Below are positions 1 to 30,637 of a DNA stretch of 64,000 nucleotides, piece after piece (the stretch's first letter is position 1; each line of letters starts with the position of its first letter). The stretch is taken from assembly GCA_001662655.1 (NCBI GenBank), contig KV460216.1; one strand, written 5' to 3'. Origin of the DNA: Pseudogymnoascus verrucosus. Taxonomy: Eukaryota. The notes under the pieces were generated by a model. It made no database searches. It saw nothing but the letters and a program-made list of their open reading frames with translations, and had not been told where the DNA came from. The translations under genes and the position numbers were made by a program.

Positions 1-5
1 CAACT

Positions 6-560
6 ATGTCTTCCTCTAAACATTTGAAAATCAAAGAACGTAAACTGCTCGCTAACTATATAACCTATAAAGGGGTTAAAATGCCTCCCTATTCCTACTA
101 TAAGAAACGAGGTCTCTACTACCTTGCTTCTGCTTCTTCTAAACGATGTAATGAATGTGTTTGTATAAATTCTTACAACTGTAACGTCTCTAGCCCCTCT
201 GCTAGTAACTAGCAGTCCCTATAAAAGGAAGAGGACTGTCTTTATCTTAAAACTTACATAACTTATAAAGCTATAGCAACTGCTATAGTGTGTCTTAACT
301 GCCTTAAGCAATAGTAGGATCTTCTTAAGACCTAAGGTGCTAAGATGCTTTATTGTGGCTTAAAGACCCTAAACAAGCTAGAGGAGGTAGAGGAACGTAA
401 ACGGCATAAGGCTAAAGCCTACGCTTACCTTACTAGCCCTTCTACTACTAACCCTAGGGGTGTTGCTTCTAAACACAACTACCTATTAGCCCTTTTCCCT
501 AGGTTCTTTAATTGCTAGGGTGTTAATAGTAGAACTCTACTAGCAACTCTAGGCAGCTAA
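6..560 (+). pseudogene. Antisense ORF of family A: Zn2Cys6-like cluster plus coiled coil, RIP-damaged (~184 codons)
   Basis: One frame runs from ATG 6 to TAA 560 with only TAA/TAG interruptions. YSYY-KKRGLY-Y-LASASSKR-CNEC-VCINSYN-C becomes C-x2-C-x6-C-x8-C-x2-C-x7-C if three TAY codons revert to TGY. It is followed by helical KMLYCGLKTLNKLEEVEERKR. Confidence 0.75.
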
Positions 561-3500
561 GGTTTCCCCTTAACTCCTATAAGTTGTCTATAGGTTCATA
601 ACCTTTCTATTTTATTAAAAACTCTTCTTAGTACCCTACTAACCTTCTGTCTAGGATTGCCTTAACCTTATATTTAATAACTTCATTCTTAGGTTAGAGT
701 TTAGTATCTGTTGTAATTAGGGCGTTCCCTCTTACTAGTTCTAATAATAAGATATAAAACACTAGGTAGAGTCTAGAGTTCTTAGGTAGCTATAGCTTAT
801 AATTAACTAAGCTGACTTTTTCTAATATCTTAAATGGTCCTAATTTCTTAAAGTCCAACTTTATACTTAGTTGTTTCGTTTTAATGTGTTTCTAGAGTAG
901 GTATACTTTATCCTCCTCCTTAAAGGTAGGTTCTATACTACACTTCCTATTTATGTATATAATAGATTGTTCATTTAAGAACTAGATGTCCGTTGCAAGT
1001 TGTTTTTAGAAGGAAAGTATCTTTAATACTTCTAACGTTCCTTCTTTAGAACGAAATTTATTTAGTCTTAGCGTTTTATACACCTCTAGTTGCTATCTAT
1101 TGTTAGTAAAGAATAGTAAGACTTTTGTTACCTCTAATAGTACTAAGTTATATGTAAATTCTACTAAATGTAGGTACTAAACCTAGTTGTCCTGTTTAGT
1201 GTTAACATAGCTTTGTAAATATACTTCTAACGTTTAGTTAGTTCGTTCTATCTATCTATCTATCTATAGATGAAAAGCTATAGATAGCTTATAGTTTGTT
1301 CTAAGCTGCGCTATAACTGTTTGCTAGAATTTAAATGTAAAGAGCTTGTCTTAATCTAAAATTATCTCGTCTAGTAGTCTATGTGCTATAACGATAACTT
1401 TTAGGAAGATATAAGCTAATGCCTTTACATCTAATGCTTCTATAAACAGCATAAAGTAGGCTTCCTTTATAAGTTAGTAGTTAGAGACTATAATAGAGTC
1501 TATAACAAATCCTATTATTAGTTCTATTAATAGTAGCAACTTAACAATGAAGTTAATTGCTATTAAGGACTATGCTTGTCCTAGTGTTAGTAGTGACTTT
1601 AAAAGTCCATATAGTACGTGTCTATTTGTTTTTAACTTCTAGCAAATGTTGTATCCTAACACTATTATTTCTACTTACTTCCTTAACCCTAGGAAGTAGT
1701 AGTGTTATACAATTCGTTTAAAGGTTTATGTTACTCCCTAATGACTATGTGCTAGCAACAAGTGTTGTTCTTACACTAGTAGGCATCTTATTTAACTTAG
1801 GACATACACTAATCCTTTAAATTAGATCAACCCTTGTTTATTAATAGAGAAGTTTCCTTTAACTTTGTTTAAGGTTTACTTTGCTATTTTGTCTATTGTA
1901 TAAGCGTTCTTAAGTCTCTGCTTAAGTTCTATATCTTCTATAATAGCAATTGTAGCTAGTAGTTTGTTATATTATATTCCTACGTCTGTTTTCTTTAATA
2001 TTGCTCTAGGTCTTTCTTCCTTTAGGCTGATGTAGTTAGTCCTTCTGCTAAGAGCATCTGCTCTTACATTCTTAGAGCCTTTATAATAGGTTATTGTGAA
2101 GTTGTAGGCTATAAGGGTTTCTGCCTAGCAGACTTGTCTATAGTTTAAAACCTTAGTTGTAGTAAAGTATATAAGGTTCTTATAATCTGTCTATACTTAC
2201 ATAGTATAGGTAGATCCCTTAAGATATACACGCTACTACTTAAAGGTAACGATAATAGCTAGTAGCTCCTTATTGTAGATGTTATAGTTGAGCTCTATAG
2301 GTGACAGTTTCCTAGAGTAGTACGTGATTAGTTTGAACTTACTGTTCTTGCCTAGCTGATTTAGACATGCTCTAATTGCAAAGTTAGAAGCGTCTGTCTT
2401 AAGGACGATCTTCTTTATAGGGTTAAATGTCGTAAGGATAGGTGCCTCTATAAACTTTGTCTTAAGTTCCTAGAAGGCAGCCTCTGCTTTGTCTATCCAT
2501 TTAAACACAAGATCCTTCCTAGTAAGCTCTATGAGTGGTTAAGCTACCTTAGAATATCCTATAATGAACTAACGGTAGAAGTTAGTAAAGCCTAAGAAGG
2601 CTTGTACTTCCTTAACTATAGTTAGTGTTAGCCATTCTAACACTACTGTAACCTTTGCTTAGTCCATCTTAATGCTATGCATTCTGATAATGTAGCCTAA
2701 GAATTCAACTTAGTTTTTATAGAACTTACATTTCTCTAGCTTTAATAGTAGGTTGTATTCCTTTAGCTTCTAGAGGACAAGCTTAATATGTCGAGCATGT
2801 TTGTCCCTATTTGCTAAGTATACTAGTATATCGTCTAAGTAAACGATAGTAAATATATCTAGATATTTATATAAAGCGTCATTCATTAAGCGTTGCATAG
2901 ATGTAGGGGCGTTAGTTAACCTAAAGGGCATAACTTAATATTTAAATAGGCTATAGTAGGTGTAGAATGCTGTTTTCTACTCCTTGCTATTAGCTATCTA
3001 GATTAGGTTGTATACGCTACGTAGATCTAGCTTAGTAAAGATCTTAGCTCCTTAGAATCTATTGTATAACTTATTAATTAACGGTAAGGCGTATTGATCC
3101 TTTATCGTTATGTTGTTTAATGCTTAATAGTCTATACATAGTCGTTTGCTTCCATCCTTCTTAGGAACCTATAACATTAGGCTTCCTATAGGAGATTTAG
3201 ACAGTCTAATAAATCCTTTCTTAAGGTTATCGTTAATATATTCTTTTAGTAGTTTTAACTCATCTGCTAACATCTAGTATATTAGTCTAAACAGTAGACT
3301 CTTTCCTTCTTCTAAGGGTATTACATGATCCTATAGTTAGTGCTTAGGAAGCGCCTCGTTCTTAGGGCCTTCCTAGAATAGCTGCTTGTATTCCTTATAC
3401 TCTACTAGTATATTTGTTAGTAAGGGTGCCTAGGCTAGGTCACTAGGCTCTATAGAGGTTGCATATACCTTGCGTTAGCCCTAGGAGGGTTTCTCCCGTT

Positions 3501-3975
3501 ATAGCATATCCGTTCGTTGTTTATACACACACTAGCTCATTACAACTTTCTCGTTCTACTAGTTGATCTAGGGGTTGTGTTTCTTAAGCTATAGCACACT
3601 AAGGATATATGTATAGTTGTCTATGTATACAATATTAAATTAGATCGTTTCCTTATGTCTACGTAGCATGACCATTTCTAATAGGGCCGTCTTGTAGGTT
3701 ACTATCCCTTTGTTAGTTAAGATGGGCTCTCTATCTACTACCATTAACGGGTAAGGATTGGTTTTTAATTACGTCTTAAAACCTTAAGTGTCTGCTACTT
3801 TCTTTGTTATAAAGTTGCCTGTTGCTCCTAAGTTAATTATAGCTTAGAGGTGTTGCTGTTATATCTTAGTAACTACATATAGTTGCGTGCTGCCTTCTAT
3901 AGCGCATAGCTACTTTATACTAGGCCTCTCTTTGTTACTTGCTAGTGGCCTACTGTTAAGGACTCCTAGTTTTTT
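480..3975 (-). pseudogene. pol: pol (PR-RT-RH-IN-chromodomain) of family A, many TAA/TAG stops
   Basis: Domain order is Gypsy-type. It begins at slippery A AAA AAC (3969-3975, minus strand) just before the gag TAG. The 3' end is approximate. Confidence 0.88.
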
Positions 3976-5030
3976 AACTTGTCTAAGGAGTAATAGTAAT
4001 GTTTATTATCCTCTATAGGCGGTCCTTAGGAAGATTGTCCTCCCTATCCTTCTGCTTTATCTAGTAGGTGTAGGTATTTCTTATATACCTATTGTAGTTT
4101 CTTTAACAGTAGTTCTCCTTTAGACTGACTTCGTCTAAGGGCATGAATTTAGTCTATATCTATAAAGTAGACCTAAGGTGCAATTTTCGGAAATAGTTGA
4201 TACTAGGTCTTTTTCCATAGGTAACTCTTATAGTTATTGTACTTGTAGTGTTCCTAGAATATATATAGGTGCTAGGGGTGATCAATCCTTAATGCATCTA
4301 ACTTTGTTAATTCCTGTTCCTCCTTTATCTTGCCTATAAGCTTGGATTTTTCTATAGTTATACGTAACCTTTCTACGTCTCTATTAGTAGGTTTGTAGTC
4401 TATAGCAGCTTAGTCTACTTGTAGTTCCTAGGGTTTAGGTCCCTAAGTGTTCTCCTACTGTTCGTCTTATGTGTTGTATTCTATAAGCTTATATTTTAAC
4501 CACATCGTGGCCTTACTTAAGGTGTGATTTACTCCCTTAGGTTCTTGTCTAAACGGGTACCTAGGGTAGCACCTTATTATACAGATTACAACTTCCTAGT
4601 CTTATTAGGTACCTTGCTAGCTAGTTAGGGGTAGTAGTATAGGAATTGCTCTTAGAGTTCCCTTTTAGAGCATAGCCTATCTATAGACGTCGACTACTCC
4701 TAGTAGATTCTCCTTAAATGCAATCTCCTTTACGTCTTCTTTAAACTCCTTTAGCTAGAGTTTCTAGGATTCCGTTAATCCCCTATTTAGGAGTTCGTTC
4801 TCCTTCTTAAGCAATGCATTAAACCCTACGGCCCCTAAGCTAGACATAATAGGCTGCGTGCAGACTACTATGCCAGCTATGTCTAGGAACTGTTTTAAGT
4901 GCGGAAAGCTAGGCCATTCCTAAGACAAATGCCTGCTTAACCCTACTGTTAAGGAGATTAACCGCAAAGCCCCTAAGGACGAAGAGTAGTAGGAGGAAGT
5001 AGTTGCCTACTAGTCGGATGCGTCCCTAGA

Positions 5031-8000
5031 GGAAAACGATGAGGCCTAGGGAAAGGCTCCTTCCTAGGTCTATGCAAATGTAATCTATAAGGACTAGATT
5101 TACAAGAGCTCTTAGGAGGCTCCTAATTTCTCGTTGATACAACCCTAAGTATAAACGGACTTAGGGTGCAAACGAAGTCACTTATAGACATAGGAGCAAA
5201 TGGCTACCTTGTCATTAATAAGCCTTTTGCATAACGGTTGTCGAAAGCGCTTTAGAGCCCTATATAGAAACTGCCCTACTCTATACCTATACGTAGATTT
5301 TAGCAAAATATCTAAAGCTACGTATTAGAGTATATTTGGTTACACTTAACAGTTAAAGGACACTGAATATATAACTGCCCCTTTGTGCTCCTAGATCTTA
5401 GAGCGCAAGATGTAATAATTAGGAAGAAGCTTTTTAGCTGCTTCTAAATCCTACTCGACTCTATAAAGAGCTAGCTAGTATGGCTAAAGGAGTACCCGCC
5501 TACTCCTAGCTAGAGCAAAGAGATCACCTTGCCCTACTACTTACGTGAACTGTCTATACGTTACCCTACCTATTAATCGGATGCAAACTGGCAGGACGAT
5601 GCTATTGACTATGACAATAGATAACGTAAGGGCGGACGCTTGATACTAATGAAAGTAATAACGGCCTATCGTAACGCTATTATAATCACCCTACTAAGCT
5701 TAGTACAAGACAAAGGAACAACCTACCTACACTACAAAACCCTAAGGACACGAGCCTCGCCTATAGAAACCTATAAAGACAGACCCTTAGGGCAAGTAGA
5801 GGCGAAACCTCTAAGAAACGGACTATCTACATATAAGAGAAAGAATTATAGGAGGAGCAGAGTCTTCTCTCTTTCCTAACGCTAGACCCTAGTATACAGC
5901 TTTACGCTAGTCTAAATTTACAAGATTAGCGCAAACGCTTTCTACTATAAGATGATGCAAAGCAACTCTAAGTTCTTTATAACAAGTATCTATAAGATTG
6001 ACTAGATCATCTAAGAGAGGGAAGCGGCTAAGGACAAGGAAACGCTCCGCCTCATTTAGGATAAGCTTCTACATATGCACTGTAACTATTCCGATGTCTT
6101 CTTAAAGTTAGAATCTAATTAGCTTCCCCTGCATTATATATACAATTATAAGATATAACTAGAAGCCCCTTTACTAAATGCCTTTTCGCTACTATACTAA
6201 CAAAGCACTAAAGAGCTTAAGGCAACTAAGCAATACCTATTAGAGAATTTAGAAAAGGGATTCATTACTAATAGCAATAGCCCCTTTGCATCCCTTATAC
6301 TGTTCGTAAAGAAAGCGGATAGCAAACTAAGATTCTATATCGACTACTAGAAGTTGAACAGACTGACCTATAACGACCCCTACCCTATCCTACGTATCGA
6401 CGAACTACTAGGACAGGTAGCAAAAGCAAAAATCTTTACAAAGCTAGACATTAGACAAGCCTTCTATTGTATACGAATAGACCCTGACTCTAAAGAGTAC
6501 ACGACCTTTTAGACTTAATATAGATCCTACAAATGTAAAGTGCTGCTGTTTAGCCTAACAAACGGCCCCGCAACCTATTAGAGGTATATAAACGACGTTC
6601 TTATGCAATACTTAGACAACTTCTATACTGCCTACCTAGACAACATCCTAATCTACTCCGAGGACCCTACAGAACACATAGACCATGTACATAAGGTCCT
6701 CTAATAGCTTTAAGAAGTAGGACTATAAGCTGACATTAAGAAATGCGAGTTTAACGTAACCTAGACAAAGTATTTAGGCTATATCCTAACTACTACTAGT
6801 GTTGAAGTAGACCCTAAGAAGATCGAACCCCTCTAGAATTAGATCTAACTAACAACGGTTATAGGCGTAAAGTCTTACCTTAGATTCTACAGCTTCTATC
6901 GCTAATTTATTAGAAATTTTAGGAAAATAGCTAAGCCTCTCACTACTATTACTAGCCCCTTAGAACCGTTCCTTTAGACTAATGAATGTAAGAACGCTTT
7001 TAAGGAAATGCGCTAACAGCTTTTAGCTATGTAGGCGCTCTACTACTTTAACCCCAAATTACCTACAAAGCTAGAAATAGACTCCTCTAACAGAGTTGTA
7101 GCTAGTGTTCTTTCTTAGGAACACCTAGATAAGCAATGGTATCCTATAAGCTTCTATAGTTACATCCTATCTAGGCACAAGATCAATTAGGAGATCTACG
7201 ATAAGGAACTGTTCGCCATTATAAAAGCGTTTGTAAAATGGAGGCTAGAATTAGCATTAGTAAGCCACTGAATTGACGTCTATATAGATCACTAATTGCT
7301 AGAATACTTTATGTTAACGAAGGTTCTTACAGCAAAGTAGGTTTAGTAGATAGAGCTACTCTCTAACTTTAACTTCTATATTACGTATACTGCTAGCAAG
7401 AACAATTAGAAGGCAGATATACTAAGCTGAAGAGAGCAAGACCTAATTACGTAATAGAAGGTTAAACTCAACAGCTATGCGAGGGTGCTGTTAGGCCTAG
7501 CCTAACTACACCCCTAAATTAGTGCTGAATTAGCACAAACGTACATAGCCTTAATTAATGCAATAGACGCCCTAAACACCTAGGTCTGCTTTAACCTAAT
7601 AGAAGCGCTCTACGTAGATAATAGGAGGTCGTTCACTAACACTTGCGCAAAAGACCCCCTACCTAATAGGTTTATAATGAAAGACCAACTCTTGTTATAT
7701 AAAGGTTGACTGTGCGTAAACTAGGACACTAAGTTATGTACGAAACTTATATAGGAAGCATACGATTAAGTATTAGTAGCCTACCCTAGTAGTAGGAAAA
7801 CTTATTAGTTACTAGCCCTAAAGTATCATTAGGTTAGAATAGAAGCGGATTACCTCTGATATGTGCGTAACTATGTAACGTGCCGACTTTCTCACACTAA
7901 CGTAACGAAGTAGTAAGGCTTCTTACACCCCCTACCGGTACCCAAATACCCTATGTAACACCTAACGATGGACTTTAAGGAATTCCTAAAGGATAAACAT

Positions 8001-9158
8001 AGATTCGACAGCATCCTTGTGTTTATAGACTAACTTAGTAAGGGTTTAGTGTCTATACTGTGTTATAAGACTACTAATGCCCGCTAAATGGCGCAGCTAT
8101 TCATCGAATGGATATATTGATTTAGACACACCCTAGAGTCGATCATTAGTAATCGCGGACCCTAATTCATATTAGCTTTCTAGCGAGAGTTCTACTAAAT
8201 CATAAGGGTTAAGATTAAGCTGTTAACAGCCTATTATAAGCAGACTGACGGGTAGACAGAAATCATAAATTGGTATATTGATTAGAGACTAAGGCCCTTC
8301 ATATCACATTACTAGGATAACTAGAGCGAGCTTATTCCCATTATAGATTAGGTACAAATGACCCTTCCCTATGCCTCGATTGGAATGACCCCCTACCGAC
8401 TTAAGTATAGGACTAATCTACGCACTAGTTAGGACTAGGAAACCCTAAAAGCCACGACCCCTAGGGAAGTTATGAACTAGAAGGAAGCTAAAGCAGTAGC
8501 AAACTACATGCACTCTATATAGACTTACGCAAAGGAGAACATAGCTAAAGCACAGGAGGATATGTCTAAATACGCAAATCAACGCTAACGAGCCATTAAC
8601 TAGAACGTAAGAGATAAGGTTTACCTATTAACTAGGAATCTAAGGAATCACTGCCCTAGCTATAAGTTAGGGTAATAATAGGTTGGACCTTATACAGTAC
8701 TAGAACAAATCAGACACGCCTTTCGATTAGACCTACTAAAGGGTTCCTAAATACACGATGTCTTCTCTCTAGACGTACTTATTAAGGCTCTAAATAACCC
8801 GCTACCTAGTTAAGCAGTACCTAAGCTAAGTAGCAAAGTTGTAGACAGCCTAGAGGAGTAGGAGGTTAAAAAGATCCTCGCTATAAGGATCTAGCAAAAA
8901 CAACTTTAATACTAGGTATCCTAGGTTAGATACGATCTAGACCTAGAATGGTACCCTACCTTAAACTTTAAGAACTCCCCCTATAAAATCTAGGAGTTCT
9001 ACGTAGAGTACCTAAACCTACTAGGACTGCTGTAGGACCTACCTAGCTAGATTATAGAATAGGAGATAGGCAAAACAAGCTACGATTATAAGAGGCACGG
9101 CAAAGCAGAGGAAAACAGCGTCGTTGCTACCTACGACACTAAACTAAACACCCTCTAA
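5031..9158 (+). pseudogene. pol: pol of B1, RIP-inactivated
   Basis: In the -1 frame relative to gag, starting from G GAA AAC; Gypsy domain order. Confidence 0.88.
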
Positions 9159-9312
9159 GCTAGGGCACCCTTAGAGCCGTAGCCCTTATAGAAGCCACCC
9201 TTCCTAAACGTCTTACTAGCATTGCAACAAGCAGCTACCACTATAAGAGACAAAGGGTTAAAGTGACCCTACGCAAAAGACTACGCCTAAGTTCCCTCTG
9301 ATATAGGGCCTA

Positions 9313-9886
9313 TCACCTAAGGTCGACGGTCACCCCCTCCTCCTCTACCTCCGCTACCTCCTCTGCCCCCCTCTTCCTCTTCTTCCCCCTACTACTGCCT
9401 ACCTTCGCCACTATAGCAAGGGCGTTGGGGATCCTCTCTACTAACTCCCCTACTGCATCCACCGCAGAAGCCACCCTATTAAGGGCAGCGATCTCCTTCT
9501 CCTAGTTTACTAGGATTAGGGCCAATTTCTAGCCTACGACGGCTACAGCCTAGCGGACCCACTACAGTTGTTAGCACAAGAACTAAAAACACAAGGGAAA
9601 TAGAAAACTTACCTCTAGACTGTCCTCAACAGTAGCGTAGAGGGCGCAACNNNNNNNNNNNNNNNNNNNNNNNNNNNNNNNNNNNNNNNNNNNNNNNNNN
9701 NNNNNNNNNNNNNNNNNNNNNNNNNNNNNNNNNNNNNNNNNNNNNNNNNNNNNNNNNNNNNNNNNNNNNNNNNNNNNNNNNNNNNNNNNNNNNNNNNNNN
9801 NNNNNNNNNNNNNNNNNNNNNNNNNNNNNNNNNNNNNNNNNNNNNNNNNNNNNNNNNNNNNNNNNNNNNNNNGGGGGAACTAGCAT
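9313..9886 (-). pseudogene. Spliced antisense gene of B1 (partly in the N-gap)
   Basis: ATG 9886 (MLVP). Intron 9562-9612 reads GTAAGT..GCTAAC..TAG. The last exon, 9313-9561, ends ..GKKRKRGAEEVAEVEEEGVTVDLR-TGA. Colinear with the B2 copy. Confidence 0.75.
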
Positions 9887-10135
9887 CTTTAAATTGGAAA
9901 TCTACGATTTCCCATTAGCCTAGCCTAGCCCAAGTTATCACTACTACGCCAGCGCAGTCCTAGCACCTACCAAATCGTTCGTTGTGTGTTTATATCTAAA
10001 AACAACCTATTAGTATCTAGCTATACTATTAGAGGGGCCACTTACTAGTCTTAGGAGGGGGGGGTCAGCGTTGTTATAAAGAAAACAACAAGTTGTAGGC
10101 GAAGCTCAAATTTATATTCTAGCTTACAACAAAGC

Positions 10136-10434
10136 TGTAAGGACACAGGGCACCGTATCACGAGGAGTTGCATATGGGAGTGCGAGTCGGATATAAGTCG
10201 GTGCAATCCTATAGGTCTACTACGAAGGATACAAAAAAGATGAAGGTGTAACCCTGTATGGCTGTTCCCTTAAAATACCCGAAACCCCTCTGACTCGACT
10301 AACCCCCTATTTACCTAAGGCTTCCTTACGCTGTGTGCCTGAGGCTCGCAGTCGCGATTGAACCGTAACCGCCCCGAGTCTCAGGGGTTGCACGTGACGA
10401 CCGTAACTAACCCGAGTAAGGAGGCATCCTTACA
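10136..10434 (-). mobile_element. Solo LTR of family B, inverted, 299 bp, TSD AAAGC
   Basis: Reverse complement of LTR 10818-11116, with TGTAAGGA..TCCTTACA ends. AAAGC occurs at 10131-10135 and 10435-10439. B2 has the empty site, a single AAAGC at 16948-16952. Confidence 0.95.
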
Positions 10435-10817
10435 AAAGCTGTCTAAATCGGGTTAGCGCCGAATTTCCCCTTTACATTAAAATTCTATAACGACACACAT
10501 ACTACGCAGACTCTATTCGATACTAATACAGACCCTCGCCTACTAATCGCTATATATACAACAAAGACGCAACCTTACGCAAACGGATTTAGACCACTTC
10601 TACTGCCTATACAGCTGCCTACCATTAGCCTTCTTAACAAACAAAGGGCATTCTAGTCTTTATGCCTACACCTTACCTAGCAACCTACACGAAGGCTTGT
10701 TACAGTCGCTCCTTAGTCTTAATTCCTCCTCTACACCACACAACCTATACAACAACTTATACATAGTATAGGCTTGCGTGCTTTAAGGACAAAGCACCTT
10801 CTAAAGGCAGGGGGTAG

Positions 10818-11116
10818 TGTAAGGATGCCTCCTTACTTAGGGTAGTTATAGCCGTTACATAGTGCTATCGAGACTTAGGGCCGTTATAGGTTAGTTGCAA
10901 CTAACAGCCTTAGGCACATAACGTAAGGAAGCCTTAGGCAAATAGGGAGCTAGCTAAGTTAGAGCAGCTTTAGGTATTTTAAGGGAACAGCTATATAGGG
11001 TTACACCTTCATCTTTTTTATATCCTTTATAGTAGACCTATAGGATTGCACTGACTTCTATCTAACTTGTACTCCTATATGCAACTTCTTATAATACAGT
11101 ACCCTATGTCCTTACA
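10818..11116 (+). repeat. LTR of family B (3' LTR of B1), 299 bp
   Basis: TGTAAGGA...TCCTTACA, preceded by the PPT at 10803-10817; direct repeat of 17275-17573. Confidence 0.95.
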
Positions 11117-14100
11117 CTTCTAAAGTGTAGCTATTATAGGATAGGTTACTAAGTTAGAATAGTTTTAGTATATATAGAATAAGCTAACCCCTTAATTCTA
11201 TAGCTACGTAGCAGTTATTAAAAGTTAATAGAAGGGAGACTACTATACTATAGTCTAAGAACTCACTGCCTTTAATTAGGAGCAGCGCTAGAACAACAAG
11301 TTAAGCTTCATATTTAAGAGCAGCAAGTTAAGCTCCTAAGGACCTACCTACCTAAGCTTATCTAGGTTCACGCCTATAGACCCTAGAAAGGCCTAGCTAC
11401 TAAGGTAGACAAGACGCCCTCTAGTTTCCTTCTAGAGGACTCCCTTTACACCTATAGCCCTTAAGCTAGACATTATAGGCTATATGTAGACTACTGTGCT
11501 AGCTATGTCTAGGAACTGTTTTAAGTGCAGCAAGCTAGGCTATTTCTAAGACAAATGCCTACTTAACCCTACTATTAAGGAGATTAATTACAAAGCCCCT
11601 AAGGACAAAGAGTAGTAAGAGGAAGTAGTTGCCTATTAATTAGATGCATCCCTTAAGGAAAACAATAAGGCCTAGGGAAAGGCTCCTTCCTAGGTCTATG
11701 CAAATGTAATCTATAAGGACTAGATTTACAAGAACTCTTAGGAGGCTCCTAATTTCTCGTTGATACAACCCTAAGTATAAACGGACTTAGGGTGTAAACG
11801 AAGTCACTTATAGACATAGGAGCAAATGGCTACCTTGTTATTAATAAGCCTTTTATGCAATAGTTGTTAAAAGCGCTTTAGAGCCCTATATAGAAACTGC
11901 CCTACTCTATACCTATACGTAGATTTTAGCGAAATATCTAAAGCTATGTATTAGAGTATATTTAGTTGCACTTAATAGTTAAAGGACGCTAAATATATAA
12001 CTGCCCCTTTATGCTCCTAGATCTTAGAGCGTAAGATGTAATAATTAGGAAGAAGCTTTTTAGCTGCTTCTAAATCCTACTTAACTCTATAAAGAGCTAG
12101 CTAGTATAGCTAAAGGAGTACCTGCCTACTCCTAGCTAGAGTAAAGAGATTACCTTACCCTACTACTTATATAAACTGTCTATACATTACCCTGCCTATT
12201 AATTAGATACGAACTAGTAGGACAATGCTATTAACTATAATAACAGACGATGTAAGGGCAGACGCTTAATACTAATAAAAGTAATAACGGCCTATTATAA
12301 CAGCCTATTATAACGCTATTATAATTACCCTACTAAGCTTAGTGTAAGATAAGGGAACAACCTACCTATACCCTAAAACTACAACGCTATAGGCCTTGCC
12401 TATAGCAACCTATAGAGACAAACCCTCTGTATAAGCTAAGGCAAATCCTCTAAGAAACGGACTATCTATATATAAAAGAAAGAATTATAGGAGGAGTAGA
12501 GTTGTCTCTCCCTCCTAACGCTAGACCCTATTACGTAGCTTTACACTAGTCTAAATTTACAAGATTAGCACAAACGCTTTCTACTATAAGATAATGTAAA
12601 GCGACTCTAAGTTCTTTACAATAAGCATCTATAAGATTAACTAGATCATCTAGGAGAGGGAAGTAGCTAAGGACGAAGAAACGCTCTGCCTTATTTAGGA
12701 TAAGCTTCTATATATGCACTACAACTATTCTAATGTCTTTTTGAAGTTAGAATCTAATTAGCTTCCCCTACATTATATATATAATCACTAGATATAGCTA
12801 GAAGCCCCTTTACTAAACACCTTCTTGCTACTATACTAACAAAGCACTAAAGAGCTTAAGGTAACTAAGCAATACCTATTAGAGAACCTTAAGAAGGGCT
12901 TTATAGTTAATAGCAATAGCCTATTTGCCTCCCCTATACTATTTGTAAAGAAGGTAGATAGCAAACTAAGATTTTATATTAACTACTAGAAGCTAAACAG
13001 TTTAACCTATAATGACCCCTACCCTATCCTATATATTAACGAACTACTAGGACAAGTAGCAAAAGCAAAAATCTTTATAAAGCTAGACATTAGACAAGCC
13101 TTCCATTATATATAAATAGACCCTAACTCTAAAGAGTACACGACCTTTTAGACTTAATATAGATCCTATAAATATAAAGTGCTACCGTTTAGCCTAATAA
13201 ACGGCCCTATAACCTATTAGAGGTATATGAATGACATTCTTATATAATACTTAGACAACTTCTATACTACCTACCTAGACAACATCCTAATCTACTCTAA
13301 GGACCCTATAGAATATATAGACTATATATATAAGGTCCTCTAACAGCTTTAAGAAGTAGGACTATAAGCTAACATTAAGAAATGTAAGTTTAACGTAACC
13401 TAAACAAAGTATTTAAGCTATATCCTAACTACTACTAGTGTTAAAGCGGACCCTAAGAAGATTGAACCCCTCTAGAATTAGATCTAACTAACAATGGTTA
13501 TAGGCGTAAAGTCTTACCTTAGATTCTACAGCTTCTATCGCTAATTTATTAGAAATTTTAGGAAAATAGCTAAGCCTCTCACTACTATCACTAGCCCCTT
13601 AGAACCGTTCCTATAGACTAATGAATGTAAGAACGCTTTTAAAGAAATGTACTAACAGCTTTTAGCTATGTAGGCACTCTACTACTTTAACCCTAAATTG
13701 CCTATAAAGCTAGAAACAGACTCTTCTAATAGAGTTGTAGCTAGTGTCCTTTCTTAGGAACACCCTAATAAGTGATAGTATCTTATAAGCTTCTATAGTT
13801 ACATCCTATTTAGGCATAAGATTAATTAGGAGATCTATAACAAGGAACTGTTCGCTATTGTTAAAGCGTTTGTAAAATAGAGGCTAGAATTAGCATTAGT
13901 ACACTACTAAATCAACGTCTATATAGATCACTAATTGCTAGAATACTTTATATTAACAAAGGTTCTTATAGCAAAGTAGGTTTAGTAGATAGAGCTACTC
14001 TCTAACTTTAATTTCTCTATTACATATACTGCTAGCAAGAACAATTAGAAGGTAGATATACTAAGCTGAAGAGAGCAAGACCTAATTACGTAATAGAAGG

Positions 14101-15951
14101 TTAAACTCAACAGCTATATAAGGGTACTGTTAGGCCTAGCCTAACTATACCCCTAAATTAGTACTAAATTAGCACAAACGTACGTAGCCTTAATTAATGT
14201 AATAGACGCCCTAAACACCTAGGTCCCCTTTAACCTAATAGAAGCGCTCTATGTAGATAATAGGAGGTCGTTTACTAACACTTACGTAAAAGACCCCCTA
14301 CCTAATAGGTTTACAATAAAGGACTAACTCTTATTATATAAAGGTTAACTGTATATAAACCAGCATACTAAGTTATATATAAAACTTATATAGGAAGCAC
14401 ACGATTAAGTATTAGTAGCCTACCCTAGTAGTAGGAAAACTTATTAGTTACTTGCCCTAAAGTATTATTAGGTTAGAATGGAAGCAGATTGCCTCTAATA
14501 TCTACGTAACTACGTAATGTACTAACTTTCTTACACTAACGTAATAAAGTAGCAAGGCTTCTTATACCCCCTACTAGTACCTAAATACCCTATGTAACAC
14601 CTAACGATGGACTTTAAGGAATTCCTAAAGGATAAACACAGATTTAACAGCATCCTTATGTTTATAGACTAACTTAGTAAGGCTTTAGTGTCTATACTAT
14701 GTTATAAGACTACTAATGCCTACTAAATGGCGCAGCTATTCATTAAATGGATATATTGATTTAGATACACCCTAGAGTTAATCATTAGTAATTATAGACC
14801 CTAATTCATATTAGCTTTCTAGTAAGAGTTCTACTAAATCATAGGGGTTAAGATTAAGCTGTCGACAGCCTATTATAAGTAGACTAATAGGTAGACAGAA
14901 ATTATAAATTAGTATATTAATTAGAGACTAAGGCCCTTTGTATCACATTACTAGGATAACTAGAGCAAGCTTATTCCTATTATAGATTAGGTACAAATGA
15001 CCCTTCCCTATACCTCGATTAGAATAACCCCCTACTAACTTAAGTATAGAACTAATCTACACACTAGTTAGGACTAGGAAACCCTAAAAGCCATAACCCC
15101 TAAGGAAGTTATAAACTAGAAGGAAGCTAAAGTAGTAGTAAACTACATACACTCTATATAGATTTATGCAAAGGAGAACATAGCTAAAGCATAAGAGGAT
15201 ATGTCTAAATACACGAATCAACGCTAACAAGCTATTAACTAGGACGTAGGAGACAAGGTTTACCTATTAACTAAGAATCTAAAAAATCACTGCCCTAGCT
15301 ATAAGCTAGGGCAACAATAGGTTAGACCCTATATAGTACTAGAACAAATTAGACACACCTTCTAACTAGACCTACTAAAGGGTTCCTAAATACACAATGT
15401 CTTCTCTCTAGACGTACTTATTAAGGGTCTAAATAACCTGCTGCCTAGTTAAGCAGCACCTAAGCTAAGTAGCAAAGTTATAGACAGCTTAGAGGAGTAG
15501 GAGGTTGAAAAGATCCTTACTATAAGGATCTAGCGAAAACAACTTTAATACTAGGTATCCTAGGTTAAATATAATCTAGACCTAGAATAGTACCCTACCT
15601 TAAACTTTAAGAACTCCCCCTATAAAATCTAGGAGTTCTATATAGAGTACCTAAACCTACTAGGACTACTATAGGACCTACCTAGCTAGATTACAGAATA
15701 GGAGATAGGTAAAACAAGCTACAATTATAAGAGGTATAGTAAAGTAGAGGAAAACAGCGTCGTTGCTACCTACAACACTAAACTAAACACCCTCTAAGCT
15801 AGGGCACCCTTAGAGCTGTAGCCCTTATAGAAGCTACCCTTCCTAAACGCCTTACTAGCGTTATAACAAGTAGCTACTACTATAAGAGACAAAGGGTTAA
15901 AGTAACCCTACGTAAAAGACTACGCCTAAGTTCCCTCTAACATAGGGCCTA

Positions 15952-16706
15952 TTACCTAAGGTTGACAGTTACCCCCTCCTCCTCTACCTCTACTACCTCC
16001 TCTACCCCCCTCTTCCTCTTCTTCCCCCTACTACTGCCTACCTTCGCTACTGTAGTAAGGGCGTTAGGGATCCTCTCTACTAACTCCCCTACTGCATCTA
16101 CTATAGAAGCTACCCTATTAAGGGCAGCGATCTCCTTCTCCTAGTTTACTAGGATTAGGGCTAATTTCTAGCCTATAACAGCCATAGCCTAGCAGACCTG
16201 CTACAGTTGTTAGCGTAGGAACTAAAAACATAAGGGAAATAGAAAACTTACCTCTAGACTGTCCTTAACAGTAGCGTAGAGGGCGCAACTCTCTATATAG
16301 GCTGAAAGCTTAGCTAGGGAGCAGAACTTTAGCATATTAGTAGTAGCTAATGTAACTACACACCTAATCTCTGCTACAGCAGCCTTAATGGTAGCGGGGA
16401 CAGGAGGGTTTACTACCTTAGCAGCTAGGAGCTTCTAGTACTCTAAGCTAGCAAACTAGGAGATCTATCTCTAAAGGTTAGCAATAGGCAGCTAAGACAA
16501 ACCATAAAGCTAAAAGCTAAACAAGAACCTACTAGAACACACATTATATGTTAGACTACATAGCGCTTACACTTAGAGCTTTCTAAGCTCTATATACATA
16601 AGACAGCAGGATCTCTGTCCTTCTTACGCCCTTTAGCGCGTACGTAGCATATACACTACTAGTAGAAAGCTATAGTAAGGGCGCTAGGAGGAGGGGGAAC
16701 TAGCAT
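15952..16706 (-). pseudogene. Three-exon antisense gene of B2: Zn-cluster-like, helical region, KKRKR, acidic tail (~211 aa before RIP)
   Basis: Exons 16706-16533, 16464-16252 and 16200-15952 (174, 213 and 249 nt, all multiples of 3). Introns are GTAGGT..GCTAAC..TAG (68 nt) and GTAAGT..GCTAAC..TAG (51 nt). The only stops are TAA/TAG. Confidence 0.8.
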
Positions 16707-17274
16707 CTTTAAATTAGAAATCTACAATTTCCTATTAGCCTAACCTAAGTTATTACTACTACGCTAGCGCAGTTCCGTTACCTACTAAATTGTTAGTTGT
16801 GTTTTTGTATCTAAAAACAACCTATTAGCATCTAGCTATACTATTAGAAGGGCTACTTACTAGTCTTAGGAGGGGGGGTTAGCGTTGTTGTTATAAAGAA
16901 AACAACAAGTTGTAGGCAAAGCTCGAATTTATATTCTAGCTTATAATAAAGCTGTCTAAATTAGGTTAGCGCTAAATTTCCCCTTTACATTAAAATTCTA
17001 TAACAACACATATACTACACAGACTCTATTTAATACTAATATAGACCCTTGCCTACTAATCGCCGTATACATAATAAAGACGCAACTTTGTATAAACGGA
17101 GTTAGACCACTTCTAGTGCCTATACAGCTGCCTACCATTAGCCTTCTAGACAAATAAAGGGCATTCTAGTCTTAGCGCCTACACCTTACCTACTAACCTA
17201 AATAAGGGCTCGTCGCAGCAGCTACTTAGCTTACGTGCTTTAAGGACAAAGCACCTTCTTAAGGCAGGGGGTAG

Positions 17275-17573
17275 TGTAAAGATGCCTCCTTACTTAGGGT
17301 AGTTACAGCCGTTACGTAGCGCCATTAAGACTTAGGGCTGTTATAGGTTAGTTGCAACTAACAGCCTTAGGCACATAACGTAAGGAAGCCTTAGGCAAAT
17401 AGGGAGCTAGCTAAGTTAGAGTAGTTTTAGGTATTTTAAGGGAACAGCTATATAGGGTTACACCTTTATCTTTTTTGTATCCTTTATAGTAGACCTATAG
17501 GATTGCACTGACTACTATCTAACTTACACTCCTATATACAACTTCTTATAATACAGTGCCCTATATCCTTATA
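17275..17573 (+). repeat. 3' LTR of B2, 299 bp
   Basis: Direct repeat of 10818-11116 after the PPT; the terminal CA is mutated to TA. Confidence 0.93.
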
Positions 17574-18100
17574 TTATTTCTATGCTTAGTATAAATATAA
17601 GTCTATATATTCCTAGGTTATAATGCTTTCTACTATAATAAACTATATTAAATATAGTTATAAATAGTTTATACTAGTAGTTAATTTAACTTTCTTTTAC
17701 TTAAACCTCTAATGTAGCTGTTAAATAGCTCTTTCTCTAAAAAACCCTAATTAGGAAAGGTAGTAGGTAATGCATTCTACTAGGCCATTTACTAAATTAG
17801 GTAATTAGGATCTAAACTACAACCTTTCATCTACTATATATTCTGCTATAATGCTCTAATTAGGAAAAGGAAACCTATTTACTATTACTAGACTTAATTC
17901 TAACAAGTTTTATACTAAAAGTTTCGTAAGTTTGTTCTAACCTTCACCCCTATTTTAGTATTCCTAACTAAATTCAGCTAGCTTATCTATAGTAGACTAA
18001 ACCACTCTATTTAATTAAGTTACATATAACGTTATAGTTAAGATGATTAGTCTCTCTCTAGGAGTAGATAATAGTAGAGGCTTACATCTGCCGCTAAATA
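17574..18100. other. AT-rich RIP-mutated sequence of unknown origin
   Basis: TpA-rich, fading into normal composition near 18.1 kb; no motif recognised. Confidence 0.5.
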
Positions 18101-19476: not shown

Positions 19477-20439
19477 TCATGGGTGCATAGGGCTCATCTC
19501 CGAGTCTCCTTCACCCGAGCTGCCAAATGCCGTCTTATATGACCCCTTCGATTTGACAGTCCCCCCAAACCCATCCAACACAGCCCCAGGATGGAACACC
19601 AACAACAACAGCACCGCAACCACAATCAGTACCCCTTCAAATACCAAAAATGTGTTCTCATCCTTCATAAGCTCACCATCGTAGCCACCAGCCATCTCGG
19701 CGACCCTGTAAATAGAACGTATAAGGATCAACATCGTCGCTGAGCCCAACGACCACAGAAATGCAGTCCACTTCTTCGACTGCGCCAACGAGGCATTTTG
19801 GATACTGGTGCTGACCTTGTGTGATGCGTGGGTGCGCCACAGGAACTCGAGGAAGAGAAACGCGAAGATAGCAATCGTTGCAACCTGGAACGACAGACCG
19901 CTGAGCATAATATTAATACCCTGTTGCCGACCCTCTGCATCATCTGCAATGGATGTGAGAGCTCCGCCTGCACCCTGGAGGCCTAGAGAGGTAGCGTCGC
20001 AGGTCAGGAATATAGGTGTATACCATGCTGGTCGCAGCCTGGACATTTTCGGTCCGCAGATAGCTACGATGCTGCCTAAGCAGATGTAGATGGCAGCGCA
20101 AAACAGAACAGGTGCAGTTGTAAGCACTATGATCTGTAGGAGATAGTAGTCCAGCGGAAATGGGTTGCCGTGGGCGAGGATGCGGCCTACGTAGCCTGCA
20201 AGCTCTAGAGAGATGCCGATTAGGATGGATATTGTGTAGGTCCATGTTTTGTAGCGCCAGCCATAGATTATGTGGCCAACAGCAAGGAGGCCGAAGAGGA
20301 CTAGTGGAACTATTGCCATGGCGAGGTCAGGTTTGTACCTGAAGATTGAGCGGGATATTGGGCATATGTCGAAGTTGCAGTCGGAAACGTCTAAGGGTTG
20401 GTTGGGGAACCTGTCGGATTCAGGGAAAGGAGAAGCCAT
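19477..20439 (-). CDS. RTA1/RSB1-family 7-TM lipid-translocating exporter
   Basis: Motifs YKP, LELAGYVGR, APV..CAAIY..L, F.TCD..SL.LQGAGG, GLSFQV and IRSIYRVAEM..G. Confidence 0.93.
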   Translation of the reverse strand: MASPFPESDRFPNQPLDVSDCNFDICPISRSIFRYKPDLAMAIVPLVLFGLLAVGHIIYGWRYKTWTYTISILIGISLELAGYVGRILAHGNPFPLDYYLLQIIVLTTAPVLFCAAIYICLGSIVAICGPKMSRLRPAWYTPIFLTCDATSLGLQGAGGALTSIADDAEGRQQGINIMLSGLSFQVATIAIFAFLFLEFLWRTHASHKVSTSIQNASLAQSKKWTAFLWSLGSATMLILIRSIYRVAEMAGGYDGELMKDENTFLVFEGVLIVVAVLLLLVFHPGAVLDGFGGTVKSKGSYKTAFGSSGEGDSEMSPMHP

Positions 20440-21470
20440 TGTGATGTTTAATCTAGGTTCTGAGGGTTTCCAAAGGTGTATTGAGAAGGACGTTGCTTAT
20501 ATGTACCCGGATATAGCGAGTGAGGGAAATGGGATGCAGATTTCAAAGTTGCCAAAGAGAATGACTTGAGATGAGTATCTGAATTAAAGCTTACCTCCGT
20601 TGTCTTCCTTTCGGGTCCTTATACTTTGATAGCTAAAGCACGTTACTTTACCAAATGGTGCCAATATCTCACTGAAAAAATAATAAAACGCAGCAATTTC
20701 ACTCACAGCCAATGGAAATGAAACAATATTGCCCGTCATTACATTGTAGAGAGAAATGGCCAGTCACGGTGCGTATTGAGCCAATTGCGTCGCAATCCTC
20801 AGCACGGCCCGGGTCAGTGAGGGTGACCCATGGGAACAGTGTTCGGCACAGATCGTATATGACCTGAGCTGATCAGCATGCTGATCAGCATACTGATCCG
20901 GATATATCCTATCCGCCAGGCGTACAACCTATCCTTGCGATTTTGACGCTTTGCAGCAAACTAGTTAGGTAGGAAGTAAGCCTATTGTTAAAATTAGTAG
21001 TTAGGTAGGAGAATTAGTAGTGGGAAATTGATAATAAGGCTGGGACAGGGGGTCGTCAATTACGGCCTTAAAAAAGGTGGGGAACGGCTATCAGAGCACA
21101 GCACGTCGCGAAATTTTCCGTTTTCGGTCAGCTCTAAGAAACTAGTGTCTCAGTCACAATTTTGATGGCCAGACTATATAACGGATCCTACTTAAGTGGA
21201 ATAGCGTATCTGCAGCTTATACGCCTCCTTTGAACTTATCCTATCCTATCTATAGTTGTCGTGTCCAGGCAGTAAACTCCTACTAACTAGATTCGCATAT
21301 TTTTGCGACAAACTTTTGCGCTTCCACTGGTTAGTGCTTATGTTGCTGTTAACATTTTACAAGGTACTCTGGCCCTATAATGCCTCACCACACTGCGTTC
21401 AGTAGTTTTTCCGAGCATATATGTGTGATTTATTTGCCTCGCCGGCGCTTCACTTTTGTCAATCACAGCC

Positions 21471-28500: not shown

Positions 28501-28613
28501 TTAAGGAAAAGAAACAGAGTAGCAGGCGGTCCTAGAGGACCTCTTATTAGAGTATGCATGAGCTAAAGGACTTAATTTCACGTTAATTTCAAACATAATA
28601 AACTTATGATTTA

Positions 28614-30635
28614 ATCGTCGGAACCGACCCTATTGCATAGGGTCGGGGTAAGCAAAGAGCGTTCGCGGAAGCAAACGGCGTTCGCCGCCAGCGCTCACCG
28701 CCACTTCGTATCGTATCCCCATCCATAACCTCAACATATCTATAGCTTATAATTTGTATACTACAACTATGTAATTGAAATGGAAGACCCTATTTTATCC
28801 GATGCTCGTGAATGGCTTGCGGCAAACCCATCTGAATCCGTTGCTGCCGCAAGCCGGATTTTCAAAGTATCAAAATCAACGCTTCAATCATCAATTACTC
28901 GACTTAATCGCACACGAGTTGGCCGCGGAGGACATAATAAGCTCCTTACAATTGCTCAAACAAAGGCCCTTAAAGAGTGGATAACTACGCAATACAATCA
29001 AGGGCTTAGAGCAACGAAGCAGATGACATTTGCTGCTGTTTGCCATATTCGACGGCTAAAACCACCGCCTTCATATAGTTGGCTTACGAAATTCATAAAG
29101 AATGAGCTTTCTGATTTTCATATTATAAAAACGAAGCCTATTGCTCTACAGCGGGTTCAAGCTCAAGACGAGAGCGTTCTTCAAAAGTGGTTTCATAATT
29201 ATAACGATTATATCACTACTCGGAATATAGGAGTAGATTCTATATGGAACATGGACGAGACTGGCTTTCAGATTGGAATTCCAGGAGGCGAACAAGTGAT
29301 AGTTCCACACGGAGTTACAGAGCTATATACAGGAAGTCCTGAGAATCGAGCTTCAATTACAGTAATCGAAGTTGTGTCTGCAAGTGGAAGAGTTACTCCG
29401 CCAATACTCATTATTCCAGGCAAAGTCCACATGGACTCATAGTACCATCCAAGTCTTGTTGGCACAGAACGGGTTCTATTATCAGAATCAGGATATACGA
29501 ACGACCAACTTGCTATGGAGTGGCTTGATCACTTCATTTTCCACACGCAAAGCACCCCTACTTCTGACGTTAAGCTACTATTATTAGACTCTCATAGTAG
29601 TCACCGAACGCCAGAGTTTACAATATATGCAGCAGAGCATAATATTATCACTTACGCCTTCCCTTCGCATCTTACCCATATTCTACAGCCATTAGATGTT
29701 GGTATTTTCCAGCCTTACAAGCACTGGCACCGCGAAGCAGTCCATTCTGCGATACGGAACCTTGATCTCTAGTATAATATACGCTCGTTTATGAGAGATC
29801 TCTCTACTATACGAGAGCAGACTTTTAAAGAGCTTACTATTATTCACGCATTTAAAAAGGCAGGAGTATGGCCTATTAATTATGATAATGCACTTGCGAA
29901 GCTACGGAAATACTCAAAACCAGCTCCTACTTTACCATCTATTATACCAGCCTCTTTTCAAGAGTCTGAAGAGCAACTACAGCATTGGAAAGTTACGCTT
30001 CCAGTCCTACTTAGTAGCCCCTCTCAACAGCAGTATAATAATTGGGTTGTTGGAACGGAAGTGGTATTAGCTCATGGCCAACTTCAAGAGCTTAACGTCT
30101 CAATTCTACAACGTCAGGTTGACGGCCATAAGAATAGGGGGCGTGGTAGCCGCAAACGCCTACAAATTGGAGGAGCTCTTACTGTAGAGGATGCGCGAGC
30201 TCAGCAGGCTGAAAAGGCAGAGCGAGAAGCAGAGAAAGAGGCTTCTAAAGAAGCCCGGATAGCCCGTCAGGCTACCAACCAGGCCCGTAAGCAACTCTAT
30301 AGGGCAGGAGTTGATGCCCGGAAGCAAGAACGCCTCCGGAAGAAGAGGGTAAAAGCCTGTCAAAAAGCTGGCAATTCAATTCCTATAGAGGACCAAGACC
30401 CAATTCCGGATCCAGAGGCAGAGAGCGAAGGTGAGAGTGGGAGTGGGAGTGGGAGCGAGCATGAATTTGAGTGGGATGGACATGAGAATTACGAGTAGTT
30501 ATTCAATTGAAGTATCTTTTCATATAAATTACTATGTAATGGTACCTACAAATTTTGGTGGTTGCGAACGCCGTTTGCTTCCGCGAACGCTCTTTGCTTA
30601 CCCCGGCCCTATGCAATAGGGTCGGTTCCGACGAT
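28614..30635 (+). mobile_element. Tc1/mariner pogo/Fot1-type DNA transposon, 2022 bp, 72-bp TIRs, TA TSD
   Basis: TIRs at 28614-28685 and 30564-30635 (one mismatch); TA at 28612-13 and 30636-37. Confidence 0.95.
28780..30498 (+). pseudogene. DDE_1 (pogo/Fot1) transposase with two in-frame TAG stops
   Basis: N-terminal HTH region and motifs WNMDETG, LLLLDSHSSH and HILQPLDVG in one frame; stops at 29440-42 and 29770-72. Confidence 0.93.
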
Positions 30636-30637
30636 TA

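Follow-up and report, generated by a model that had tools for sequence, protein, structure and literature searches.

The window examined here, a 64,000-nt stretch of contig KV460216.1 of Pseudogymnoascus verrucosus, opens with 17,573 nt of Gypsy chromoviruses that have been destroyed by repeat-induced point mutation (RIP). These belong to two distant lineages, A and B, each with a six-cysteine (Cys6) gene that is antisense to pol and converges on its end. We found that the lineage A gene belongs to a broad protein family and is under strong purifying selection, and its fixed position on the end of pol points to an old third gene inherited with the element. Based on the anatomy of its product, we incline, if only by a little, to the view that it is an element-encoded, Gal4-shaped dimeric regulator of the element's own long terminal repeat (LTR). 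An earlier interpretation of this DNA from its letters alone (the sequence-only reading) had described pol with a chromodomain followed by a convergent antisense Cys6 gene in both lineages, and both genes are indeed present (6-560 in A and 16706-15952 in B).

The RIP-mutated, AT-rich part makes up the first ~18 kb of the window, beyond which lie ordinary fungal genes. The composite RIP index per kb is 1.1-2.5 over positions 1-18000 (0.43 in the last kb) and is mostly negative beyond 19 kb. The A and B copies in the window are dead.

The lineage A element and its antisense gene

The following features of element A were recognized in the window.

6..560, plus strand: A antisense gene, RIP-dead, with a Cys6 cluster, a long coiled coil ending EMLRRGLxxLDEL, an acidic-aromatic tail and no intron
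448..560, strand not assigned: predicted convergent overlap (113 nt) in which the A antisense gene covers the last part of pol (basic tail and end of the chromodomain)
448..4002, minus strand: A pol, RIP-degraded, with protease, reverse transcriptase (RT), RNase H, integrase, SH3 and chromodomain (~680-510), from Pfam and direct reading
3969..3975, minus strand: A gag-pol slippery site AAAAAAC, the same heptamer as in the intact locus L002
4003..4780, minus strand: 3' part of A gag, cut off at the start of the first B copy (B1); six-frame reading, boundary approximate

The frame at 6-560 has 184 codons and six internal stops, and its product, with the stops read as X, is 64% identical to the intact 197-aa protein P0002 over 99% of its length. 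Compared with the gene of P0002, 114 of the 150 nucleotide differences are C>T or G>A, and three of the six Cys codons in the window copy now read Tyr. The pol order RVT_1, RT_RNaseH, Integrase_H2C2, SH3_Tf2-1 was obtained with Pfam in both A and B1. Pfam Chromo had no match on the RIP-degraded A and B1 frames; a chromodomain-like motif was read directly there and aligns to the pol ends of intact relatives, and we take these pol ends to be probable chromodomains based on the motif. The TAG at 448-450 in the A pol frame is the stop at the 113-nt overlap position; earlier RIP-type stops interrupt this frame, and the overlap in the window copy is predicted from intact relatives. The sequence-only reading had placed the gene downstream of the chromodomain, which is true of B, while in A the gene overlaps the end of pol. 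LTRs with TG..CA ends, a purine tract and a 5-bp target duplication are present in B. The A LTRs fall outside the window, and LTR ends, purine tract and target duplication were seen in intact A relatives.

Linkage, selection and probable inheritance of the A gene

A metagenome scan, in which the query was a 22-sequence subset of the A family whose members all have EMLRRGLxxLDEL, gave 64 pattern matches and from these 19 loci (L001-L019). Fifteen of the 19 have a convergent chromovirus partner, identified as pol by tblastn in 14 and as a chromodomain in L011; in L017, where the contig ends 40 nt behind the match, the gene is preceded by a purine tract and an LTR. The 3' ends of the Cys gene and pol overlap by 113 nt in seven of 11 intact loci, representing four distinct families, and by 116, 125, 194 and 200 nt in the others, with one phase in all 11 (the count leaves out L011 and also L004, L015 and L016, which have broken frames). 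The stop of the Cys gene lies antisense to the L-x-C motif of the chromodomain, and the A-type families sharing the overlap are 51-66% identical in RT. In A loci the ATG of the Cys gene is ~100 nt from the purine tract. As independent captures would not hit one phase on one motif, the single phase and motif point to a gene that was inherited as an old third gene rather than captured repeatedly.

We computed the ratio of non-synonymous to synonymous substitution rates (dN/dS) of the A gene outside the pol overlap. L001 and L002 differ at 54 synonymous and five non-synonymous positions (dN/dS 0.017), and L006 and L008 at 18 and three (dN/dS 0.047); for these two close pairs the pol values were much the same (0.05-0.07). 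Pairs near saturation gave 0.17-0.25, compared with 0.03-0.12 for pol overall. The A gene is under strong purifying selection. The sequence-only reading had allowed that such genes might be sporadic, not conserved within families or evolving neutrally, none of which describes the A gene, with its 774 protein clusters (see below), linkage in 15 of 19 loci and dN/dS of 0.017-0.047. A comparison of trees had also been proposed. The integrase-end tree and the Cys-protein tree of the A loci (overlap excluded) have two starred clades in common and a third that is compatible, with no starred conflict. Fixed overlap phase, fixed LTR distance and compatible trees all fit the idea of an old third gene for lineage A.

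Other observations count against so simple a history. The 19 loci were selected by the Cys gene and not by chromovirus pol, so that 15 of 19 is a share of Cys genes with a partner and not of chromoviruses with the gene. L010 is a true exception, having ~500 nt of non-pol DNA behind the Cys gene, and no pol was seen behind the gene in L018 and L019, the latter a probably spurious match (E 5e-4, cysteine part unmatched) that is still counted among the 19. The deep nodes of the Cys tree lack resolution. The Mantel correlation (rho 0.43, p 0.0125, seven rows) falls to 0.32 (p 0.11, six rows) without the near-duplicate L002; the test left out L007, L008 and the window copy, and the second RT of L004 stood outside the tree. 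Finally, L003 and L001 are 87% identical at the integrase end and 53% identical in the Cys protein, from either faster change of the Cys protein or a module swap.

Two further observations concern the contigs themselves. L010:142-705 is an A-type Cys6 gene and a candidate copy freed from its element, on a contig that ends in adapter-like sequence. The L005, L006, L012, L013 and L014 contigs (6.3-6.6 kb) are self-closing with a single LTR, and could be tandem arrays with shared LTRs (like the B copies in the window), one-LTR circles or collapsed assemblies.

Breadth and anatomy of the A-type proteins

In a HMMER search of 1.84 billion representatives (clusters at 50% identity) the A family comprised 774 clusters at E 0.001 and 274 at 1e-10. 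All 30 of the 30 A matches in the ESM Atlas fell in clusters without a common Pfam family, and the three clusters displayed were mostly Ascomycota. Among 21 proteins looked up, most of them unnamed, the named A-family members come from Pseudogymnoascus, a Xylariaceae species and Cytospora mali, always annotated as 'hypothetical' or 'uncharacterized'. Viral contigs gave 40 pattern matches for P0002, 14 for an intact A pol and 58 for the B-type protein P0011, none of which was confirmed.

All six cysteines are invariant among 116 near-full-length aligned A-family proteins. Zn(II)2Cys6 proteins such as Gal4 have the spacing C-x2-C-x6-C-x5/12-C-x2-C-x6/8-C, and the A-type spacing, C-x2-C-x6-C-x8/10-C-x2-C-x6/8-C in 114 of 151 proteins (the query and its best 150 matches), conforms to it. 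The Cys6 label of the sequence-only reading is thus canonical for A, and not for B, in which the second loop has 15 residues instead of x6. Basic residues hold fixed places in the A cluster (K/R in 92% before Cys4 and in 78% two after Cys5), and 78 A-type tails contain 14% D/E, 2% K/R and 9% aromatic residues. In the A model (predicted local distance difference test, pLDDT, 88) an N-terminal helix precedes the cluster, which a short linker joins to a 52-residue helix; a second helix follows, and the tail is unstructured. The helices at 79-130 and 135-156 score above 90. A linker followed by a coiled-coil helix is the order found in Gal4, dimerisation being predicted, and EMLRRGLxxLDEL is a conserved helix motif of these proteins. 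Compared by sequence with solved structures, A matched Put3, Lac9 and Gal4 best (top four of seven, E 0.013-0.1), and 15 of the 18 rows listed by Foldseek for the A model were Zn2Cys6 proteins (E 0.4-4). A wide structural search with the A model found generic coiled coils only (Z at most 6.1), the cluster not being probed by it. The sequence and fold matches to Gal4-type proteins are consistent, each of them weak.

The likeness to Gal4 has limits that tell against a Gal4-shaped DNA-binding regulator. P0002 (13.7 bits) and P0003 (10 bits) fall below the 21-bit cut-off of Pfam Zn_clus (PF00172), for which 23 of 116 family members reach E 0.01. Foldseek ranks 1-10 are all Zn2Cys6 proteins (Gal4, Put3, Hap1, Pho7), at E 0.37-1.2, none significant alone. 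Among the 114 proteins with the spacing, the position of the base-contacting Lys18 of Gal4 is K/R in 7% and Gal4 Pro26 (Pro two before Cys4) occurs in none; with both recognition residues missing the A protein, if it binds DNA, would bind it differently. The sequence-only reading had also suggested that such genes could inflate Zn2Cys6 counts in fungal annotations; this effect looks small, given the Zn_clus scores and the names of the relatives.

The missing recognition Lys and Pro would also suit a protein with no sequence-specific DNA binding at all, namely a structural zinc module and coiled coil that binds Gag, integrase or a host factor in particle assembly, nuclear entry or integration. 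The mostly helical chain, the KKRKR and non-canonical loop of the B protein (below), and the fact that such roles for antisense open reading frames (ORFs) have been raised in a review (PMC7264820) all agree with this explanation. It accounts poorly for basic residues at fixed cluster positions and for canonical spacing, linker and coiled coil in Gal4 order, and we consider it rather unlikely.

Family B and its antisense gene

Family B is a tandem of the form B1-LTR-B2-LTR, in which B1 and B2 are 90% identical over 4863 nt. Its features are as follows.

4801..9040, plus strand: B1, gag end with zinc knuckle, GGGAAAG slippery site (5049), pol to chromodomain (~8853-9030)
9313..9886, minus strand: B1 antisense gene, with the Cys exon and most of exon 2 under N (9651-9871); intron 2 at 9612-9562
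10136..10434, minus strand: solo B-type LTR, inverted, in the B1 3' region, with AAAGC target-site duplication
10818..11116, plus strand: B LTR, serving as B1 3' LTR (purine tract before it) and B2 5' LTR
11117..15680, plus strand: B2, gag remnant, slippery site (11675), pol to chromodomain (~15492-15675)
15952..16706, minus strand: B2 antisense gene, RIP-dead, ~209 codons, ATG at 16706, stop at 15952, matching P0011 and P0177
16706-~16539, minus strand: B2 antisense exon 1, Cys6 with 15-residue second loop
between exons 1 and 2, minus strand: B2 antisense intron 1, ~70 nt, exact ends unsure
~16467-16252, minus strand: B2 antisense exon 2
16251-16201, minus strand: B2 antisense intron 2, GTAAGT..CTAAC..TAG
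16200-15952, minus strand: B2 antisense exon 3, long helix, KKRKR, short acidic end
16707..17274, strand not assigned: B2 3' internal region, upstream flank of the antisense gene and purine tract
17275..17573, plus strand: B2 3' LTR

The B2 antisense exons (introns predicted) are 62-67% identical to the independently annotated 208-aa P0011 (E 7e-57). As the sequence-only reading had it, the gene lies between the chromodomain and the 3' LTR, ~270 nt behind the former and 569 nt ahead of the latter, and it is present in both B1 and B2. Contigs of four other runs cover 30, 30, 30 and 27 of 30 bins over 15200-17600; in run X2, 348 of 394 differing places oppose the RIP direction, and a single contig reaches from exon 3 as far as the purine tract. 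The P. destructans model P0177 has the same upstream flank and extends into sequence like the B stretch up to the purine tract, and the gene model P0012 extends into the B stretch towards the chromodomain. Since both models run into element sequence, the B gene sits in element DNA elsewhere too.

The spacing in the B protein, C-x2-C-x15-C-x8-C-x2-C-x6-C, lacks the canonical 6-residue second loop, and the 15-residue loop recurs in P0011 and P0013. Word-index searches found seven relatives, all in Pseudogymnoascus; the model is mostly helix with pLDDT 54 (below 50 in the cluster region), and the protein had no Pfam match at E 10.

Positions 15797-15907 and 9158-9268 (minus strand) match the C-terminus of P0012, hinting at a possible third intron and a longer last B exon that would reach nearer the end of pol. 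Another gene model, P0010 (VE02_07898), begins with an acetyltransferase-like part and continues into B-gene exons 2-3; it is probably a prediction artefact, and possibly a host-element fusion. Acetyltransferase matches in the ESM Atlas for B were discarded because the query, P0010, is chimeric with an unrelated N-terminus.

Lineages A and B are distant from each other. A-type and B sequences are 35-41% identical in RT-RNase H, where different A-type families reach 51-66%, and the split between A and B in the tree is fully supported. As described in the sequence-only reading, their slippery sites differ (A, AAAAAAC at 3969-3975, minus strand; B, GGGAAAG at 5049 and 11675) and they show no obvious nucleotide similarity, the one exception being a 158-nt RT patch at 68%. 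At the protein level, A and B gave a BLASTP E of 0.005 over 41 aa, an hhalign match of 45% over 24 columns (two B sequences cover the cluster), and E 0.035 for the A profile against P0011, with the likeness confined to Cys3-Cys6. The genes differ in loop length, introns, tail and geometry. On these comparisons a common origin of the A and B genes is possible, although we somewhat doubt it; more likely, B has a different spliced protein, acquired separately or diverged beyond recognition, rather than demonstrably the A gene. What the two lineages demonstrably have in common is thus their layout and not, so far, their ancestry; the old third gene of the sequence-only reading fits A and, given the weak 24-column stretch, is no more than possible for A and B jointly.

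The lack of demonstrable homology between A and B would be in keeping with the other origin considered in that reading, in which exons of host transcription factors were captured recently and more than once and are of no use to the element (or, similarly, with a purely RNA-level antisense function), as would the spliceosomal introns of B, its restriction to one genus in the searches made, and L010, with no pol behind its gene. For A, capture is ruled out by the dN/dS of 0.02-0.05, the invariant cysteines of 116 proteins, the one overlap phase and the absence of any host-type transcription-factor domain among the A-family matches. For B, capture stays conceivable, although both element-derived flanks are kept in other genomes and all 30 bins are covered in three of the four other runs. 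Overall, we regard this explanation as highly improbable. Double-stranded RNA (dsRNA) would follow from the convergent geometry if both strands are transcribed.

LTR sequences and the proposed function

Over-represented short family-specific repeats precede the TATA box in five of seven LTR U3 regions (p < 0.01 vs shuffles), and TACTTAAGYG, a candidate promoter motif, lies ~50 nt before the ATG of the Cys gene in 10 of 19 loci. These candidate target repeats are 100-300 nt from the A gene, which makes the question of function directly testable. As side observations, TAGATAGGAGCTTCGTGCT stands directly behind the TATA box, exact in nine of 19 loci (L003, L004, L005, L006, L007, L012, L013, L014, L017) among which the rest of the LTR is unalignable, and CACGTG palindromes occur in several U3 regions of A-type loci.

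The mechanism that we slightly favour for A is as follows. Transcription of the antisense gene would start from the 3' LTR or its inner border, at a promoter ~100 nt away from the ATG. Its product would be a miniature Gal4-shaped protein: the six-cysteine head is expected to bind two zinc ions, the long coiled coil, set off by a short linker, is expected to dimerise, and the chain ends in a low-complexity tail rich in acidic and aromatic residues. The dimer may bind the family-specific short repeats upstream of the TATA box in its own LTR, and this binding would switch transcription of the element, probably on, via the tail. The B protein, with its Cys6 cluster, long helix and nuclear-localisation-like KKRKR, probably has a comparable nuclear job in the same place.

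Three results sit less well with this mechanism. CGG triplets were not enriched in the seven U3 regions. GGA/GGAT ranked top when six U3s were pooled, a weak and post hoc result. Part of the acidic-aromatic tail is encoded antisense to the chromodomain end and basic tail of pol; being dual-coded with the basic end of pol, the tail may owe its make-up to pol, which weakens the argument for an activator.

The same anatomy and linkage would also fit a protein that binds its own element to act against silencing, shielding the LTR from heterochromatin or RNAi-directed marks, or that represses the LTR as a copy-number brake. There are parallels for both, since the VANC proteins of plant VANDAL transposons counter silencing and the antisense HBZ of human T-cell leukaemia virus type 1 (HTLV-1) represses its LTR. 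Family-specific U3 repeats and a Cys protein that changes faster than pol (53% vs 87% identity for L001 and L003) would be consistent with conflict, and the conserved EMLRRGLxxLDEL helix resembles a partner-binding surface. However, the acidic-aromatic tail suits an activator better, and Pfam scans found no chromatin-binding motif in A-type proteins. We believe that such a role is unlikely.

Returning to a Gal4-shaped regulator of the element's own LTR, a wider proposal is that fungal chromoviruses are 'complex' retroelements. A large clade would have its own Gal4-like trans-regulator, its gene locked to the chromodomain by the dual-coded 113-nt overlap, reading element-specific non-CGG LTR repeats, and carried since before the split of Leotiomycetes and Sordariomycetes or spread between them; a second lineage would have arrived at this layout with a spliced Cys6 protein of another kind. 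We put this forward tentatively, as a proposal somewhat more apt to fail than to stand. If true, zinc-cluster domains of new specificity would form a mobile reservoir, open to exchange together with the LTR as a single module and to uptake by the host.

Recoding sites and other features of the window

Five A relatives have an in-frame TAG CAA CCA within RNase H (L005:4525, L006:3130, L008:2466, L012:659 and L014:4343, minus strand). They form two families, 66% identical in RT-RNase H, that are otherwise intact and un-RIPped, with gag and pol in one frame; L013 has Trp at the TAG position. TAG CAA CCA fits the readthrough motif UAG-CAR-YYA. Readthrough here, if true, would set the ratio of Gag-protease-RT to full polyprotein at an unusual place, and a single literature search listed no description of an RNase H TAG readthrough site. 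L013 has instead an in-frame TGA CTA G between protease and RT (L013:2860, minus strand) in an intact element, UGA-CUAG being a known readthrough context. L002 and the window A copy use the AAAAAAC frameshift, unlike L013, so that recoding varies in the clade while the antisense gene is constant.

Beyond the Gypsy cluster, 79-nt terminal inverted repeats (96%) at 28612-30637 flank a broken transposase-like frame (28753-30498), with milder RIP than in the cluster; we presume that this element is of pogo/Tc1-mariner type. The first intact gene beside the repeat cluster, at 19477-20496 (minus strand), encodes a multi-pass membrane protein that we take to resemble the RTA1 family. At 32725-33033 an 81-nt coding repeat occurs four times within a basic/acidic low-complexity protein.

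Comparison with known systems

LTR retrotransposons are taught as gag-pol elements that depend on host transcription factors, and a conserved regulator-like gene suggests that some elements encode their own regulator. One antisense extra gene now has recognisable DNA-binding anatomy, hundreds of diverse members and strong purifying selection; a class of 'hypothetical' fungal genes is explained as parts of transposons, and the A overlap adds a conserved case of antiparallel dual coding. The under-annotated retroelement regulatory system suggested by the sequence-only reading is plausible from the anatomy. That it is under-annotated holds, although an antisense gene at this position has been on record in Botrytis since 2011.

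Zn(II)2Cys6 factors bind two zinc ions and, typically, CGG triplets. The A proteins share with Gal4-type factors (Gal4, Put3, Lac9, Hap1, Ppr1, Pho7; PF00172) the six-cysteine spacing, short linker, coiled coil and acidic tail. Unlike these factors, A and B proteins have 185-210 aa, no middle homology region and are retroelement-encoded; in addition, A lacks the recognition Lys/Pro and B has the 15-residue second loop.

Regulators encoded near a 3' LTR are familiar from retroviruses, namely HTLV-1 HBZ (antisense, from the 3' LTR, with a coiled coil), foamy virus Tas and human immunodeficiency virus Tat. These accessory regulators are an analogy to the A and B genes only, no sequence relation being expected; the comparison has been made in general terms (PMC7264820).

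Among the papers within reach, which leave out most subscription papers, none was found to report a zinc-cluster gene from fungal Gypsy elements; term look-ups in PMC3248453, PMC3441728, PMC10799480 and PMC13159263 returned no antisense or third-ORF passage. What is known is the antisense position; searchable papers do not seem to describe the likeness to Gal4, the breadth of the family, the selection on it or the dual-coded overlap.

The closest precedent is brtn, an antisense gene of a Botrytis element that was reportedly described by Zhao in 2011. From the passages concerned, brtn, like the A and B genes, is an extra antisense gene of a fungal Gypsy element located between pol and the 3' LTR. 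It is mentioned in PMC8365987, and a passage of PMC5987419 describes an 802-nt Monilinia transcript that resembles BRTN as well as a truncated chromodomain Pol; this agrees with how tightly A-type genes overlap pol. On these descriptions, brtn could belong to the A family. The passages on brtn in PMC7264820, PMC8365987 and PMC5987419 contain no zinc cluster, coiled coil, fixed overlap, selection or range beyond Sclerotiniaceae.

Plant elements and Botrytis Boty are reported to have conserved antisense ORFs, of unknown function, in the interval from pol to the 3' LTR, and regulatory and dsRNA roles have been proposed for them (PMC7264820). The aORF-3R of plant LTR elements (maize Grande gene23, rice RIRE2, Silene Retand and bean PvRetro13) share with the A and B genes their position, orientation, conservation within families and proposed regulatory role, and they have their own antisense promoter and a nuclear product (PMC7264820). 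They differ in their plant hosts and in having no clear similarity to known proteins and no Cys6 cluster (PMC7264820). The layout that aORF-3R and brtn have in common, an antisense ORF between pol and the 3' LTR that is kept in most copies, is also that of the A gene (15 of 19 loci) and the B gene.

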